A stretch of DNA of 64,000 bases from Hyphomicrobiales bacterium (GCA_031367895.1 JANLQP010000104.1:6375-70374), one strand, 5' to 3'; positions 1,705 through 26,114 are shown, counted from the first letter of the stretch. A program made the numbers and translations. The notes: a model not told the origin generated them from the sequence alone.

Positions 1705-2946
1705 ATGCCTCAACCCAAGCCCACCGGCGCGCTCGACGGCGTCGTCGTCATCGACTTCACACAGATGTTGTCCGGTCCGTTTGCGGCGATGCTGCTGGCG
1801 GATCAGGGCGCGCGCGTCATCAAGATCGAGCCGCCGGGCGGCGACCAGACGCGCAAGTTCGGACCGTTCCGCGCCGGGCAGTTGACGATGGCGGACGGCG
1901 GATACGGCGGTTATTTCGCCTCTACCAACCGCAACAAAGAATCGCTCGTCGTCGATCTCAAATCGCCGGAAGGCCGCGCGGTCATCGAGCGTTTGGTGGC
2001 GAAGGCCGACATACTGATCGAGAACTTCCGTTCCGGCGTCATGGAACGGCTCGGTCTTGGTTATGAAGCGCTTGCGAAAATCAACCCGCGTCTCGTCTAC
2101 GGCGCCATTCGCGGCTTCGGCGACGCCCGCACGGGCAAGAGCCCCTACGGCGAGTGGCCGGCTTACGACGTCGTCGCGCAGGCGATGGGCGGCATCATGG
2201 GCATTACATCCACGAAACCCGGCGGCCAGCCGACCAAGATCGGGCCCGGCGTCGGCGACATCGTGCCGGCGATGCAGTGCGCGTTCGGCCTCGTCTCGGC
2301 GCTCTATCGCGCACGCGGCACCGGCCAGGGCCAGTTCGTCGACGTCGCCATGGTCGATGGCGTGCTCGCCTTGTGCGAGCGCATCGTCTTCCAGCACAGT
2401 ATCGACGGCAGCGTCCCCGGCCCCGAGGGCAACAGCCACCCGTTGCTCTGCCCCTACGGTTTGTTTCAGGCGAAAGACGGTTGGGTCGCGATCGGCTGCC
2501 CGCACGACGAATTCTGGAAGCTGCTTGCACGCTCCATGGGCCTTGGTGAAATGGCGGACGATCCGCGCTATGCGGTAATTTCCGAGCGTTTGAAGCGCCG
2601 TGCCGATGTCGAGGGCGCCGTCACTGCCTGGACCAGCGCGCGCACGAAGGCCGAAATCTCAACCGTGCTTGGCGGCAAGGTTCCGTTTGGCCCCGTGCAG
2701 CAGGTGGACGAGATCTTCGCCGACCCGCACACCGCCGCACGCGGAATGCTTGCAACGGTTGAGTTGCCCGGCTGCCCCGATCACCCGCTCGTCATCGCCG
2801 GCACGGCCGTCAAAATGACCGCAACGCCCGGCGGTGTCCGCACACGTGCCCCACTCACAGGCGAACACACGGCGAGGGTGCTCGGCGACTTCGGATTTAC
2901 AGAGATCGAGGTCGCCAAGCTGCGCACAGCGAAGGCGGTGGGCTGA
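1705..2946 (+). CDS. Family III CoA-transferase (CaiB/BaiF-like)
   Basis: 413-aa ORF. N-terminal LDGVVVIDFTQMLSGPFAAMLLADQGARVIKIEPPGGD is typical of class III CoA transferases. It lies directly downstream of the PrpD-like gene. Confidence 0.9.
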   Translation: MPQPKPTGALDGVVVIDFTQMLSGPFAAMLLADQGARVIKIEPPGGDQTRKFGPFRAGQLTMADGGYGGYFASTNRNKESLVVDLKSPEGRAVIERLVAKADILIENFRSGVMERLGLGYEALAKINPRLVYGAIRGFGDARTGKSPYGEWPAYDVVAQAMGGIMGITSTKPGGQPTKIGPGVGDIVPAMQCAFGLVSALYRARGTGQGQFVDVAMVDGVLALCERIVFQHSIDGSVPGPEGNSHPLLCPYGLFQAKDGWVAIGCPHDEFWKLLARSMGLGEMADDPRYAVISERLKRRADVEGAVTAWTSARTKAEISTVLGGKVPFGPVQQVDEIFADPHTAARGMLATVELPGCPDHPLVIAGTAVKMTATPGGVRTRAPLTGEHTARVLGDFGFTEIEVAKLRTAKAVG

Positions 2947-3021
2947 CGCTCTCAATCACCTACGGGTTGCCCGGTCTAATACCGTTGTGCAGATTGTTTG
3001 ACCTGTGCTTCGCCGCTGCCC

Positions 3022-3062
3022 GCGCCATCCGGCCGGCTCCCTGCAGGGGAGTCGGATGGCGC
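3022..3062. terminator. Strong hairpin between convergent genes (possible bidirectional terminator)
   Basis: GCGCCATCCG (3022..3031) pairs perfectly with CGGATGGCGC (3053..3062). There is also an inner CTCCC/GGGAG stem. It sits between the stop of the CoA-transferase and the stop of the DegP-like gene. No clear U-tract. Confidence 0.4.
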
Positions 3063-3165
3063 AAAGTAAAAGCGATACCGGCGCCTGGCTGATCGATGAC
3101 AGGTCGAACATTTTGCTCGCCGGTCTAACGCTCTGCAAGCGGCGCGTAGGCCGGGAACCGGACGC

Positions 3166-4677
3166 TCACTCGATCGGGACGGCGACGAAGCGCAAATCAC
3201 CCTTGCCTTCTTCGATCCGCAGCAACACTTGCTTGCGGCCGGCCTTCTTCACCTTCTCGATTGCCTTGCTGACATCCTCGACAGAGGTCACCGGGTCCTG
3301 CGCGGCTTCAACGATGACATCGCCGGCCTTGATGCCCTTCTGCGCCGCCTGACTGGCCGGATCGACCTCGACGACGACCACACCCTTCACTTTCGGATCG
3401 ATCTTGTGCTTGGTGCGCAGTTCGTCGGTGATCGCCGAAAGGCCGAGACCGATCAGTGCCTTGCCCGGGGCCTTGTCCGCGCCGGGCTTCTTTGAATCCT
3501 TGTCGTCCTTCTTGTCCTCGTCCTCCTGCAGGCGTCCGACGACGGCCTTCAGCACCTTCTTCTGGCCCTTGCGCAGCACCTCGACGTCGACTGTGCGGCC
3601 GACCGGCGTCTGCGAGACGACACGCGGCAGCCCGCGCATGGTGGATACATCCTTGCCGTCGAACTTGGTCACCACGTCGCCCGCCTCGATGCCGGCCTTG
3701 GCGGCCGGGCCGTCCGGCGTCACGCCGGAGATCAGCGCGCCGGTGTTCTCCTTGACGCCGAGCGTCTCGGCGATGTCGTCGGTGACGGACTGGATCTTGA
3801 CGCCGAGCCAGCCACGGCGTGTCTCGCCGAACTGCTTCAACTGCTCGACGACGGACATGACCGTGTCGGACGGGACCGCGAAACCGATACCGATCGAGCC
3901 ACCAGTCGGGGAGATGATGGCCGTGTTCACGCCGATCACTTCGCCGTCCATGCTGAACAGCGGACCACCGGAGTTGCCCTTGTTGATCGCGGCGTCCGTC
4001 TGCAGGAAGTCGTCGTAGGGTCCCGAATTGATATCGCGCTGCTTGGCCGAGATAATGCCGACCGTCACCGAACCGCCGAGGCCGAACGGGTTGCCGATCG
4101 CCATCACCCAATCACCGACCTTCATGCCCTGTGAGCTGCCGAACGGCACAGACTTGAGCGGTTTTTTCGGCGTCACCTTGAGCAATGCCAGATCCGTCTT
4201 GGTGTCCTTGCCGAGAACCTTGTCGACCTTCAGTTTCGAGCCGTCGGAAAAGTTGATGATGATCTCGTCTGCGCCTTCGATCACGTGATGGTTGGTGACG
4301 ATCAGACCTTCCTTGGCGTCGATGACGAAGCCGGAGCCGAGTGAGGAGACCTTGCGGTCAGTCGGCTGGCGGCCGCCGCGCTTATTGAAGAAGTCCTCGA
4401 AGAACTCTTCGAAGGGCGATCCCTTCGGCACGTTCGGCAGTGGCACGCCCTGCGGGCCCTTCACGGTCTGACTGGTCGAAATATTGACCACCGCGTCGAT
4501 CAGCCTCTCCGCGAGCGGTGCAACCGACTGCGGACCGATGCGCCCCTGCGCCAGCACGGGTGCGGTCATCGGCAGGGTCAATGGTAGAGAAACGGCTAGG
4601 ACCGCCAGCACTGAGGTGGCGCATGCCCAGCGCGACGTGGCCGACTTCGCTGTGCGGGCGTTGGCAATAGGTGTCAT
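3166..4677 (-). CDS. Do/DegP/HtrA family periplasmic serine endoprotease with two PDZ domains
   Basis: ORF 3166..4755. I prefer the ATG at 4677, which has GAGGA 6 nt upstream. Signal-peptide-like N-terminus, His motif TNHHV and catalytic Ser motif GNSGGPL. The two C-terminal repeats look like PDZ domains. Confidence 0.9.
   Translation of the reverse strand: MTPIANARTAKSATSRWACATSVLAVLAVSLPLTLPMTAPVLAQGRIGPQSVAPLAERLIDAVVNISTSQTVKGPQGVPLPNVPKGSPFEEFFEDFFNKRGGRQPTDRKVSSLGSGFVIDAKEGLIVTNHHVIEGADEIIINFSDGSKLKVDKVLGKDTKTDLALLKVTPKKPLKSVPFGSSQGMKVGDWVMAIGNPFGLGGSVTVGIISAKQRDINSGPYDDFLQTDAAINKGNSGGPLFSMDGEVIGVNTAIISPTGGSIGIGFAVPSDTVMSVVEQLKQFGETRRGWLGVKIQSVTDDIAETLGVKENTGALISGVTPDGPAAKAGIEAGDVVTKFDGKDVSTMRGLPRVVSQTPVGRTVDVEVLRKGQKKVLKAVVGRLQEDEDKKDDKDSKKPGADKAPGKALIGLGLSAITDELRTKHKIDPKVKGVVVVEVDPASQAAQKGIKAGDVIVEAAQDPVTSVEDVSKAIEKVKKAGRKQVLLRIEEGKGDLRFVAVPIE

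Positions 4678-14137: not shown

Positions 14138-14138
<1 letters not shown>
13596..14138 (+). CDS. atpH: F0F1 ATP synthase subunit delta (OSCP)
   Basis: Starts at [16 protein letters not shown], a typical delta N-terminus. Its stop overlaps the atpA start (TGATG). ORF in the track is 13494..14138. Confidence 0.85.
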
Positions 14139-15667
<1,529 letters not shown>

Positions 15668-15940
15668 AAGTAGTTGCTATTGCCAACATCGACGATACTC
15701 AAGTGGGCTGCGCTGTTGTTGGTTCTGGTCGTCATGGTTGCTTCTGGCGGATTGGCCTACACACGGTATGAATGGCGGCAATACCAGGTTACGACGGCGG
15801 CTTAGCGGGCGGCCTCGACCCAAGCATGGGATGCTGGGTCAGACTTCCGAGTGGTGGAATGGAGCGCATTGACCCCCGCGCGGCGAAATGAGATCACACG
15901 CTCGACTAGGTTGCTACGCAGAGAATAAGCGAGAAGTGCA

Positions 15941-16159
15941 ATGGACGTTGAACTCATCAGCGATCAGAAAGGGAAGCTTCAGGACCTTGTGGGATCTACG
16001 CGGTCCATTGGCCCCGACGGACCGACCTACCAGGTCCTTCGTATCATCGACGAAACACGCGCCCTTATCTCTATTCTCGAGGCCGAGCGTCAGGTCGAGT
16101 ACGACATCGCGGACATCCTGAAAGATCCTGGACCCGACGCGGCTTGGAAAAATCGCTGA
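15941..16159 (+). CDS. Small protein (72 aa), putative partner/antitoxin of the downstream VapD-like gene
   Basis: Its stop overlaps the next start (TGATG at 16157..16161). It is a paralogue of the 80-aa ORF 17404..17646: 15 identities in a 52-residue ungapped hand alignment, sharing GPxGPxYxV and L.DP. Confidence 0.6.
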   Translation: MDVELISDQKGKLQDLVGSTRSIGPDGPTYQVLRIIDETRALISILEAERQVEYDIADILKDPGPDAAWKNR

Positions 16160-16446
16160 TGTTTGGGCTGGCGTTCGATCTCGACACAGTGGCCGCAAAA
16201 CGAAATCATCCCCGCGGGTCGTCGGCGCAGGCATACACAGACATCAGGATGACGCTGGCCCCCTATGGGTTCGAACGCATTCAGGGCAGCACGTATGCAG
16301 CGAGCCATGAAGATCATGGCAAGCTCTTTCTCGCGCTGACTGCCCTGCGAAATTTGACTTGGCTCGGTACCAGCTTGCACAACGTCCGGGTGTCCCGGAT
16401 GGAACAGGGAACGGACTTCACCGAAATCATGAAGTCTCCACGTTAA
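16159..16446 (+). CDS. VapD-like (Cas2-fold endoribonuclease family) protein, divergent copy
   Basis: 95 aa starting MFGLAFDL. It keeps the AYTDI..L.P.GFERIQGS.Y core of VapD. The C-terminal motif is degenerate (SRMEQGTDFT instead of F.VE.WSDFT). About 36 identical positions in my hand alignment to the copy at 17657..17935. Confidence 0.8.
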   Translation: MFGLAFDLDTVAAKRNHPRGSSAQAYTDIRMTLAPYGFERIQGSTYAASHEDHGKLFLALTALRNLTWLGTSLHNVRVSRMEQGTDFTEIMKSPR

Positions 16447-16473
16447 CGAAAAAGACGCGCAGGATTCAAATCG

Positions 16474-17349
16474 ATGGCCTCACTCAAAGAGATGCGAAAC
16501 CGCATTGCCTCCGTTAAGGCGACGCGGAAAATTACCAAGGCCATGCAGATGGTCGCAGCCGCCAAGCTGCGTCGCGCACAGGAAGCGGCCCAGGCCGCGC
16601 GTCCCTACGCCGAGCGCATGGACCGCGTGCTCGCCAATCTGGCATCGAAAGCCAGCAAGGAGGGCGCCTCGCCGCTTCTCGTTGGCACTGGCAAGGACCA
16701 GGTGCACCTGCTCGTCGTCATGACCGCCGAGCGCGGCCTGTGCGGCGGCTTCAACTCGAACATCGCCCGTCTCGCACGCGCGGATATTCAGCGGCTGAAT
16801 CGTGACGGCAAGACGGTCAAGATCATGTGCGTCGGTCGCAAAGGTGCGGACAACCTGCGCCGGGACTTCGCCCGCCAGATCGTCGACCGCATCGACCTCA
16901 AGGCTGTGAAGCAGATGAGCTTCACCAATGCCGAGGATATCAGCCGGAAGGTGATGGCGATGTTCGAGGCGAAAGAGTTCGACATCTGCACGATCTACTT
17001 CTCGCAGTTCCAGAGCGTGATCGCGCAAAAGCCGACCGCGTTGCAGCTGATTCCAGCCAAAGTGCCCGAGGCGAAGGCCGACGCGGGCGCGAAATCGGCC
17101 GTCGAATACGAGCCCTCCGAGGAAGAGGTGCTTGGCGATCTCTTGGTCCGCAACATTTCGACACAGATCTTCCGCGGCCTCCTGGAGAACGCGGCGTCCG
17201 AGCAGGGCGCGCGGATGTCGGCCATGGACAATGCGACGCGTAACGCCGGCGACATGATCAACAAGCTGACGATCAAGTACAACCGCCAGCGTCAGGCGAA
17301 CATCACGAAGGAGTTGATCGAGATCATTTCGGGCGCCGAGGCGCTTTGA
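16474..17349 (+). CDS. atpG: F0F1 ATP synthase subunit gamma
   Basis: 291 aa. N-terminal [36 protein letters not shown] and C-terminal [15 protein letters not shown] are classic gamma-subunit ends. Confidence 0.97.
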
Positions 17350-17403: not shown

Positions 17404-17646
17404 ATGGCTTCACAAGGTCGAGCAACGCGGGGCGGTTATCGCGAGGCACAAGCAAAGTACGGCTTTGCAGAACAGCGCGCTTTCATCGGCGATGTCCGTC
17501 GCTTCGGGCCGTTCGGACCGGCCTACGAGGTGGTTGATGTAAAGGCGAACGGTGACGTCCGCATTGTCGTGATCGAGACAGGCGAGCGCTTGGACTACGC
17601 GCAAGCTGAGTATCTCGCCGATCCTGTCGCCGAAACGGTTCCATGA
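17404..17646 (+). CDS. Small protein (80 aa), putative partner/antitoxin of the downstream VapD gene
   Basis: AGGAG RBS 6 nt upstream. Paralogue of 15941..16159 (GPFGPAYEVV vs GPDGPTYQVL). It ends 10 nt before the VapD start. Confidence 0.65.
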   Translation: MASQGRATRGGYREAQAKYGFAEQRAFIGDVRRFGPFGPAYEVVDVKANGDVRIVVIETGERLDYAQAEYLADPVAETVP

Positions 17647-17656
17647 GGTCTGTGTC

Positions 17657-17935
17657 GTGTTCGCCATAGCATTCGTCATGGTCGTCGCCGATATCAGGCA
17701 GCACTATCCCAAGGGGATATCGAGCGCCTACACGGAAATCGGGAAAACGCTCACGCCGCATGGGTTCGAGCGGGTTCAGGGGAGTGTCTACCTGACGCAT
17801 AACGCCAGCTTGGCGAACCTGTTCGATGCGATCGACGCATTGAAAGCAATGAAGTGGTTCAAGCTTTGTGCCCGCGACGTCCGCGGCTTCAAGGTCGAGA
17901 ACTGGTCGGATTTCACAGCGTCCGTTAAGCGCTGA
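17657..17935 (+). CDS. vapD: Virulence-associated protein D (VapD) family endoribonuclease-like protein
   Basis: 92 aa with a GTG start. MFAIAF...YPKG.S.AYTEI...L...GFERVQGSVY...LF.AI.ALK...WF...VRGFKVENWSDFT matches the VapD family pattern, as recalled from Helicobacter and Haemophilus VapD, along the full length. Confidence 0.9.
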   Translation: MFAIAFVMVVADIRQHYPKGISSAYTEIGKTLTPHGFERVQGSVYLTHNASLANLFDAIDALKAMKWFKLCARDVRGFKVENWSDFTASVKR

Positions 17936-19469: not shown

Positions 19470-19721
19470 ATGGCCGCCGACGACAAGAAGTTCGGCTCGT
19501 GCTGCGAACTGTTGCGCGATGCGATGAGCGACGAGGATTTCGATCCGCTCATCACAGTCGGCGAAGATGACGGCATCCTCTATCTCTCTGTCGGCCTGAT
19601 CGACGTCGAGGAAGAGCAGCCGGGCTCGGTCGAGTATCCGATGCTGCACTGCCCGTTCTGCGGCACCGCACTGCAGACGCAGGACGAGATCGACGCGAAG
19701 AGCGCCGGTAAGGCCAACTGA
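19470..19721 (+). CDS. Acidic 83-aa protein with a C-terminal CPFCG motif, function unknown
   Basis: Strong GC3 codon bias like the neighbouring atp genes. It lies on the same strand between atpD and atpC. Cys residues are CC near the N-terminus and CPFC near the C-terminus. Confidence 0.65.
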   Translation: MAADDKKFGSCCELLRDAMSDEDFDPLITVGEDDGILYLSVGLIDVEEEQPGSVEYPMLHCPFCGTALQTQDEIDAKSAGKAN

Positions 19722-26038: not shown

Positions 26039-26114
26039 GCCGCAATAGCTCAGCTGGTAGAGCACCGCATTCGTAATGCGGGGGTCACAGGTTCAAGTCC
26101 TGTTTGCGGCACCA
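26039..26114 (+). tRNA. tRNA-Thr (anticodon CGU)
   Basis: Hand-folded cloverleaf. Acceptor GCCGCAA/TTGCGGC, D stem GCTC/GAGC, anticodon stem CCGCA/TGCGG with loop TTCGTAA, T arm ACAGG-TTCAAGT-CCTGT, and an encoded CCA. Confidence 0.95.

Follow-up and report, generated by a model that had tools for sequence, protein, structure and literature searches.

Results

Two small genes lie between atpA and atpG

We analyzed a 64,000-nucleotide (nt) stretch of DNA from a Hyphomicrobiales bacterium (GCA_031367895.1, JANLQP010000104.1:6375-70374; hereafter the window) that contains an F1 ATP synthase (atp) operon, and centered the analysis on two small open reading frames (ORFs) situated between atpA and atpG. 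Their products resemble the VapX and VapD proteins of known toxin-antitoxin (TA) modules, and we refer to the genes as vapX1 and vapD1 and to the pair as cassette 1. A paralogous pair, cassette 2 (vapX2 and vapD2), follows atpG, and the operon order in the window is atpH-atpA-[vapX1-vapD1]-atpG-[vapX2-vapD2]-atpD-orf83-atpC. No further vapXD copy was found in the window. Positions are counted from its first letter, and protein lengths are in amino acids (aa).

14138..15667 (+): atpA (F1 alpha; Pfam ATP-synt_ab), upstream neighbor in the same operon
15668..15940 (+): atpA-vapX1 spacer, 273 nt from the atpA stop to the vapX1 start, lineage-specific
15941..16159 (+): vapX1, 72-aa VapX-like (DUF5397) putative antitoxin with a predicted SH3-like beta-barrel
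16157..16161 (+): TGATG stop/start overlap of vapX1 and vapD1, 1 nt
16159..16446 (+): vapD1, 95-aa VapD-family (Cas2-fold) putative endonuclease toxin of an atp-resident clade with Gly at position 84
16447..16473 (+): vapD1-atpG gap, 27 nt, with the native Shine-Dalgarno-like CAGGA of atpG and no terminator
16474..17349 (+): atpG (F1 gamma), downstream neighbor, with a vapXD cassette on either side
17404..17935 (+): second, paralogous cassette, between atpG and atpD
17404..17646 (+): vapX2, 80 aa, DUF5397 match above cut-off
17657..17935 (+): vapD2, 92 aa, GTG start, Val at the catalytic Asp7 position in this strain

The vapX1 stop codon (TGA, 16157-16159) and the vapD1 start codon (ATG, 16159-16161) share one A, and vapD1 ends with TAA at 16444-16446. 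An earlier note on this DNA had pointed to the TGATG shared by the two genes as architecture typical of type II TA pairs, and had quoted the strings MFGLAFDL, AYTDIRMTLAPYGFERIQGSTY and SRMEQGTDFT from the 95-aa product. The sequence and the ORF list bear out the overlap, each string is found in the product, and the arrangement of co-directional, overlapping small genes with the antitoxin first is conserved among orthologs. The TGATG-type overlap itself recurs in six related loci (L007, L010, L014, L017, L096 and L098; related loci are given L numbers throughout) and is consistent with translational coupling. A mechanical ORF list also offered a TTG start for vapD1 at 16144 (100 aa), but we prefer the ATG at the overlap because all orthologs begin with MF there.

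VapD1 matches VapD toxins in sequence and predicted fold

A phmmer search of all PDB sequences matched residues 1-92 of VapD1 to Haemophilus influenzae VapD (6ZN8_A, E=1.8e-19) and also returned Helicobacter pylori VapD (3UI3, E=2.6e-10). Against the NCBIfam VapD model NF041506, VapD1 gave E=9e-9 and 35.6 bits, well under the 100-bit equivalog cut-off, and VapD2 likewise scored below that cut-off (33 bits). An AlphaFold2 (AF2) model of VapD1, built from 24 database homologs, had a mean pLDDT of 93.6. VapD adopts a modified ferredoxin fold (b1-a1'-a1-b2-b3-a2-a2'-b4) plus a C-terminal extension (PMC11980593), and the element order of the model (b1-a1'-a1-b2-b3-a2-a2'-b4-a3) is the one described there. 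Furthermore, the top Foldseek match of the model was 6ZN8_A (TM 0.86/0.90, rmsd 1.6 Å), followed by other VapD structures, with Cas2 only behind those. These results corroborate the proposal, made earlier, that the ORF is VapD-like; a lack of any VapD/Cas2-fold match for 16159..16446, which the earlier note had named as grounds for giving the idea up, did not occur, as both searches gave strong matches. By sequence and by model, then, we regard the 95-aa product as a VapD-family protein and a putative toxin/nuclease.

The catalytic residues of VapD are an Asp and a Ser, and a D7N substitution abolishes toxicity (PMC11980593). VapD1 has both (Asp7 and Ser44). The two residues are invariant in 72 ordinary VapDs and in 12 VapDs of the Gly84 clade described below, and every atp-embedded cassette-1 VapD retains them except one with a nonsense codon.

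Matches of VapD1 to Cas2 were weak (Pfam, E=0.031; PADLOC Cas2, E=1.5e-6); PADLOC gave only such weak Cas2 matches, and a PHROG search gave none of any kind. No cas1 gene lies beside the cassette, and no CRISPR-like array was found in the window. We rejected a CRISPR-Cas2 assignment because the VapD matches are far stronger, the neighbors are atp genes, and both cas1 and an array are missing.

VapX1 is a VapX-like partner

The 72-aa product, which the earlier note had left unidentified, has a conserved core (LVG..RSIGPDGPTY) and a conserved tail (DPGPDAAWKNR). Its match to DUF5397 in a local Pfam search (PF17375.8) was below threshold (E=0.017, 15.3 bits, cut-off 26), and a precomputed PF17375.10 match is listed, unmarked, for a protein identical to VapX1. 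VapX2 matched DUF5397 above cut-off (30.8 bits). VapX1 and VapX2 are related by BLASTP (E=8e-9, 31% identity) and by comparison of an X1 profile of seven orthologs with an X2 profile of ten VapX2-type partners (hhalign probability 99.3%, E=4.7e-20). The X2 profile in turn found the crystallized VapX antitoxin 6ZN8_C (E=2.3e-4). Searched directly against the PDB, the X1 profile gave no match, so the link between VapX1 and VapX rests on the X2 profile and on the fold. The AF2 model of VapX1 (pLDDT 77 overall, 82-90 in the core at residues 20-60) is a small four-stranded beta-barrel that ends in a C-terminal helix; of 350,542 PDB chains, VapX 6ZN8_C matched it best (probability 1.0, TM 0.56-0.60), with SH3 and Tudor domains next. 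With moderate confidence, the model thus suggests a single-domain SH3-like beta-barrel. We conclude that the 72-aa product is a VapX-like (VapX/DUF5397) partner matching VapD1 and a putative antitoxin, and, because profile and fold matches were obtained for both proteins, that VapX1 and VapD1 form a pair of VapX/VapD homologs.

The pair is organized like H. influenzae VapXD (6ZN8; the endoribonuclease VapD plus VapX), with the small antitoxin first and a toxin of about 92 aa second. VapD1 and H. influenzae VapD align end-to-end (43% identity in the Foldseek structural alignment), with the same modified ferredoxin fold and the same catalytic Asp7 and Ser, and VapX1 has a predicted SH3-like barrel of the DUF5397/VapX family and, as in H. 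influenzae VapX, a ...DP... C-terminal tail. The VapX match was seen through profile and fold comparison only. H. influenzae VapXD is a stand-alone locus, whereas VapXD1 sits within the F1 atp operon with no promoter of its own detected, and where the H. influenzae toxin reads EQWSDFT, VapD1 has Gly for Trp and, in this species, Ser for the preceding Phe.

VapD1 belongs to a clade that lacks a fixed tryptophan

Ordinary VapDs carry the C-terminal motif R-A-F-R-[VI]-E-Q-W-S-D-F-T, which spans beta4 and the start of the dimerization extension. VapD1 departs from it, with R-V-S-R-M-E-Q-G-T-D-F-T in the equivalent place. We took a residue census and built a neighbor-joining tree (200 bootstraps) of 90 VapDs, comprising 72 ordinary VapX-linked and 18 atp-embedded proteins. 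Position 84 is Trp in all 72 ordinary VapDs and in six cassette-2 VapDs, VapD2 of the window included, and Gly in 12 of 12 members of the clade that contains VapD1. This position comes just after strand beta4, where the C-terminal extension that mediates VapD/Cas2 homodimerization begins (PMC11980593). At position 79, all 72 ordinary VapDs and 17 of the 18 atp-embedded ones have Phe, and this species alone has Ser. Since all ten contigs with the window's VapD1 encode an identical protein, Ser79 does not stem from faulty assembly. In a 99%-identical relative, Ser79 occurs together with Ala84 (G84A). The Phe79-to-Ser change in the beta4 core may attenuate the toxin of this strain.

In the tree, the cassette-1 VapDs cluster with the cassette-2 VapDs of L010, L018, L020 and L054 (78% support), and the core cassette-1 group has 92% support. 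Deep nodes have 4-39% support, and the tree therefore does not discriminate between one capture into the operon and two independent ones. A scan of JGI metagenomes with a degenerate Gly84 pattern (R-[VA]-F-R-x-E-x-G-x-D-F-T) returned ten stretches, nine of them in atp operons, at either spacer, and the tenth a fragment on an unrelated low-GC contig. At E<=1e-3, VapD1 matched 221 clusters in 1.84 billion 50%-identity representatives, and Gly84 was present in 9 of the 50 full-length representatives inspected among these. VapD1 thus belongs to a distinct VapX/VapD lineage, found so far almost only in F1 atp operons of uncultured soil Hyphomicrobiales.

The insertion is old and under purifying selection

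Exact-sequence look-ups of VapD1 and six homologs (62-76% identical) placed all seven between atpA and atpG. A scan of one genome per GTDB species yielded 80 VapD loci, nine of which have vapXD inside the atp operon; all nine are metagenome-assembled genomes (MAGs) labeled Hyphomicrobiaceae, Hyphomicrobiales or Alphaproteobacteria. About 65 other GTDB vapXD loci, from many phyla, are ordinary and have no atp genes nearby. These ordinary chromosomal loci (e.g., in Methylobacterium, Methylocystis and Acetobacteraceae) hold the same two-gene module, with VapDs 44-52% identical to VapD1 and 50-62% identical to VapD2; unlike the window cassettes, they are never beside atp genes, and 72 of 72 have Trp84 and Phe79.

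The atpA-[vapXD]-atpG-[vapXD]-atpD layout was found in about 20 distinct contigs or MAGs. AtpA of these lineages, where the gene is complete, is 84-92% identical to that of the window, and the genes beyond the atp operon differ among them. Pairwise NG86 estimates for VapD1 gave nonsynonymous divergence (dN) of 0.14-0.42, synonymous divergence (dS) above 1.5 or saturated/not computable, and dN/dS (omega) of 0.05-0.23, with omega 0.09 against the closest locus with DNA (L014). Omega was 0.05-0.46 for VapX1 and 0.11-0.33 for atpG. Constraint on VapD1 is therefore comparable to that on atpG, although the early loss of cassettes with dead toxins may make the survivors look over-constrained.

Because AtpA has diverged, synonymous sites are saturated and the surroundings differ, we consider atpH-atpA-[vapXD]-atpG-[vapXD]-atpD-[Cys-rich ORF]-atpC to be an old trait of the clade. 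By these sequence comparisons, the vapXD1 insertion appears to be old, neither a recent arrival nor a wreck. This qualifies three statements of the earlier note. Its hint of foreign origin can hold for the deep past only, as lineages with 8-16% AtpA divergence and saturated synonymous sites have the cassette at this site too. Its description of VapD1 as possibly degenerate does not stand: Asp7 and Ser44 are kept, Gly84 is clade-wide under purifying selection (dN/dS ~0.05-0.2), and with omega this low the term is unfair to the family. Its view that the C-terminal motif had been replaced is right in that Ser79 and Gly84 are unusual, but only one substitution is species-specific, and the remainder of R-V-x-R-M-E-Q-x-T-D-F-T is intact.

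The second cassette and recurrent lesions in the toxin gene

VapD1 and VapD2 are 38% identical (E=1e-22). VapD2 has a canonical-looking C-terminus, and the neighboring VapD had earlier been taken as the canonical copy; in this strain, however, the gene at 17657..17935 has lost the catalytic Asp7 (D7V). This change is polymorphic within the species: the near-identical contigs L001 and L002 keep Asp, and an inactivating vapD2 allele therefore appears to be segregating in the population. The Campylobacter jejuni VapWD system (9KAN) has a catalytically dead VapD homolog that acts as an antitoxin (PMC11980593), and VapD2 is like C. jejuni VapW (V11) in having Val at the catalytic Asp position. The likeness is confined to that substitution, since VapD2, unlike VapW, is otherwise a normal VapX-linked VapD and its D7V varies within the species. 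VapD1, also unlike VapW, keeps both catalytic residues.

Toxin lesions were found in both cassettes of related loci (in L106 within 2400..4143):

L106/L107/L110, cassette 1: nonsense at codon 22
L106/L107, cassette 2: nonsense at codon 45, polymorphic between assemblies (intact in L110)
L016 7400..7700, cassette 2: frameshift
L113 640..940, cassette 2: frameshift
L011 7590..7841, cassette 2: internal deletion

Toxin knock-outs affect about 5/19 cassette-2 copies and 1/14 cassette-1 copies. The lesions are confined to vapD genes, and the adjoining vapX is intact. Copy number also varies. Cassette 1 is missing from L020, L054 and L108 despite intact atp operons, and L098 (3654..4997) has two vapXD cassettes in tandem between atpA and atpG, one per sub-type: the first a double-domain VapX with an EAGADFT-type VapD, the other a DPGPDAAWK-tailed VapX with an EQGTDFT-type VapD. 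Tandem double-domain forms occur among several VapX proteins. The L098 arrangement suggests that the ancestor carried the cassettes in tandem and that they were then lost differentially; we offer such loss as a possible reason that cassette-1 similarities fail to track AtpA/AtpG similarities. Lesions restricted to the toxin, together with gain and loss, are the behavior expected of TA modules, which argues against an indispensable housekeeping role.

Three related loci show further rearrangements. Codons 1-38 of atpG are duplicated (82% identical) between atpA and cassette 1 in L010 alone (3546..3659), a possible scar of an insertion or recombination event. A GNAT acetyltransferase gene is inserted between vapD2 and atpD in L063 (2709..3275), and IS66-type remnants follow atpG, where atpD is expected, in L094 (2734..4053).

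Composition, spacers and expression signals

The earlier note had suspected low G+C in cassette 1 from a 60-nt spot count, and measurement by gene supports it. The cassette genes have GC 0.56-0.57 and third-position GC (GC3) 0.64-0.67; atpA and atpG have GC 0.62-0.63 and GC3 0.84-0.86; and window genes of >=200 aa average GC 0.636 (sd 0.018) and GC3 0.78 (sd 0.07). The same holds in every related lineage (cassette GC3 0.5-0.78 vs 0.75-0.92 in atpG). Low cassette GC3 does not indicate recent transfer and may instead reflect weak codon selection or damped translation in a highly expressed operon.

No terminator-like site was found between the atp genes on the + strand, and the single promoter-like match, inside vapD1, is at chance level, with no site above chance. 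In L007 and L014, atpA and vapX1 are only 28-42 nt apart. In most cassette-bearing loci, 13-27 nt separate the end of vapD1 from the start of atpG, and the cassette-free L020 and L054 have the same CAGGA(C) element ahead of atpG. No flanking direct or inverted repeats, attC-like structure or recombinase were found around the window cassette, whose upstream spacer is unstructured as a whole and which is followed by only 27 nt before atpG, and the lack of flanking repeats led us to reject an insertion scar or target duplication there.

The 273-nt atpA-vapX1 spacer contains one hairpin, GACCCAAGCAT-GGG-ATGCTGGGTC (15817-15840, +; dG about -18 kcal/mol, z -1.98), which is unique in the window and could be an intercistronic mRNA-stability element. 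Repeats of GACCCAAC/GTTGGGTC are present in the atpA-atpG spacer of the cassette-free L054. The spacer as a whole folds no better than shuffles (z=+0.70), and Rfam gave no match even at E<=1 in the spacer or the whole operon. With no Rfam match and no fold signal beyond this modest hairpin, we rejected an RNA element in the spacer or operon. We also rejected a decayed second cassette or a decayed N-terminal DUF5397 domain in the spacer, as tblastn and blastn with the cassette proteins and the spacers of seven related loci gave nothing credible.

Discussion

We think it probable that vapX1-vapD1 is a VapXD-type type II TA module resident in the F1 atp operon, in which the cleft of a VapD1 dimer is occluded by VapX1 and both addiction and position aid persistence. 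Presence/absence polymorphism, the doubling in L098 and the recurrent toxin-only lesions favor this TA assignment. The module is most likely transcribed from the atp promoter; we infer co-transcription because we found neither a terminator-like site nor a promoter-like site above chance, and because atpG keeps its native ribosome-binding site. Guided by the structure of H. influenzae VapXD and by what is published on VapD (PMC11980593), we propose that the pair, lacking a promoter of its own, would be read through from the atp promoter, that translation of vapD1 would be coupled to that of vapX1, and that atpG would re-initiate 27 nt past the vapD1 stop. By analogy with H. influenzae VapXD, VapD1 would dimerize via its C-terminal extension to form a nuclease cleft, which one VapX1 beta-barrel would plug, as in 6ZN8 (PMC11980593). 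If VapX1 supply fell (e.g., when phage or starvation halts host transcription/translation), free VapD1 could cut nucleic acid and arrest growth. Persistence could then have two sources: the module would be addictive, and a spacer between essential genes would be a safe, always-transcribed harbor in which only precise deletions are tolerated.

Several points weigh against a functional TA module of this kind. Toxicity, neutralization and co-transcription are all inferred. F79S and the G84A of the close relative fall in the C-terminal dimerization region, and the toxin could be disabled. Trp84 is missing clade-wide, and activity may therefore not follow the H. influenzae model. VapX consists of one beta-barrel and has no DNA-binding domain (PMC11980593), and, as no promoter of the pair's own was found either, classical autoregulation, in which a DNA-binding antitoxin controls the promoter of its own type II module, is absent. 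Finally, a purely selfish model does not predict strong purifying selection on the toxin, although survivorship bias could mimic it.

The best surviving alternative, which we nevertheless consider unlikely, is that the pair in this strain is a decaying remnant, a disabled toxin with a leftover antitoxin that is held in place since imprecise deletion would harm atpA or atpG. The Ser at the otherwise invariant Phe79 in this species alone, the G84A variant in its population, D7V in the neighboring vapD2 and the clear toxin decay in other lineages would all fit such a history. However, neither ORF is truncated, Asp7 and Ser44 remain in place, 10/10 carrying contigs encode an identical VapD1, omega against L014 is 0.09, and AF2 still gives a confident VapD fold, though AF2 is insensitive to single substitutions.

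Less likely again, in our judgment, is that Gly84 VapXD has been domesticated as an atp accessory, no longer poison and antidote but serving the operon. As an endoribonuclease, VapD1 might process the atpHAGDC transcript around atpG, tuning gamma against alpha/beta, or the pair might couple growth arrest to falling atp expression. The tie of the Gly84 clade to atp operons (12/12 tree members, 9/10 motif matches) fits such a role, as do cassettes on both sides of atpG, an omega as low as that of atpG and the short vapD1-atpG distance in most loci, and the replacement, throughout the clade, of a Trp that is fixed elsewhere suggests that function has shifted. Yet the close relatives L020, L054 and L108 have intact atp operons without cassette 1, copy number varies (L098), the toxins are repeatedly knocked out (nonsense, frameshift, deletion, D7V), and codon usage is unlike that of the atp genes in every lineage; one founder insertion followed by vertical inheritance explains the association without a function. 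We are more doubtful still of a Gly84 VapXD that has specialized for the F1 atp operon and been co-opted by the host as an energy-status switch, in which the action of VapD, on general RNA or on the atp polycistron, would depend on atp expression. Were such co-option true, how much a cell invests in ATP synthase would directly govern growth arrest or the output of the gamma subunit. That the pair is a stray Cas2, or a mobile or integron-type gene cassette of recent acquisition, is very improbable: weak Cas2 profile matches and G+C below that of the neighbors point toward it, but the VapD matches are far stronger, the window has no adjacent cas1 or CRISPR-like array, the cassette has no flanking direct repeats, attC-like structure or recombinase, and the insertion is common to lineages with saturated synonymous divergence.

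TA modules are usually viewed as mobile, self-regulated islands. Read as a resident TA module, the atp cassettes would be one VapXD family that settled long ago among the genes for the alpha, gamma and beta subunits of an essential enzyme and that apparently uses the operon promoter. In Escherichia coli, the mazEF pair is co-transcribed downstream of the housekeeping gene relA and lies at the operon end with its own autoregulated promoter. The atp cassettes are like relA-mazEF in being a TA module on a transcript with core metabolism genes, and unlike mazEF in being interleaved among essential structural genes of one enzyme complex. The atp operon of Rhodopseudomonas blastica has an extra gene between gamma and beta. 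Our literature search returned no paper linking VapD/VapX or TA modules to atp operons. The protein family is known; the literature searched made no mention of conserved residence in the F1 atp operon, of paired cassettes on the two sides of atpG or of the Gly84 signature.

If confirmed, the locus would be a test case, provided by nature, of the persistence of selfish or defensive modules in safe-harbor spacers of essential operons, and would supply natural intermediates in the decay of a toxin (Asp7-to-Val, nonsense, frameshift and deletion alleles), some of them still polymorphic. It would also provide a VapD sub-family without the fixed Trp of the dimerization extension, which bears on how VapD dimerization and activity are tuned. 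For annotators there is a caution: where atp operons of soil Hyphomicrobiales contain additional small ORFs, these are genuine genes rather than noise.

Other features of the operon and window

A possible gene, a 43-aa hydrophobic ORF with a TTG start (15674..15805, +), directly follows atpA, and at the corresponding site L094 and L011 have putative membrane-like small ORFs (65 aa and 109 aa, respectively) that are non-homologous. The sole RNA gene detected in the window is a tRNA-Thr (CGT) at 26039..26114 (+). Between atpD and atpC lies an 83-aa acidic, Cys-rich ORF (FGSCCE...HCPFCGTALQT; 19470..19721, +), orf83 in the operon order above, with a host-like GC3 of 0.83. It had no match in Pfam, NCBIfam, PADLOC or PHROG, is kept at the same position in all related loci seen (L007, L010, L018, L020, L054, L077 and L096), and may be an undescribed operon-encoded small protein.

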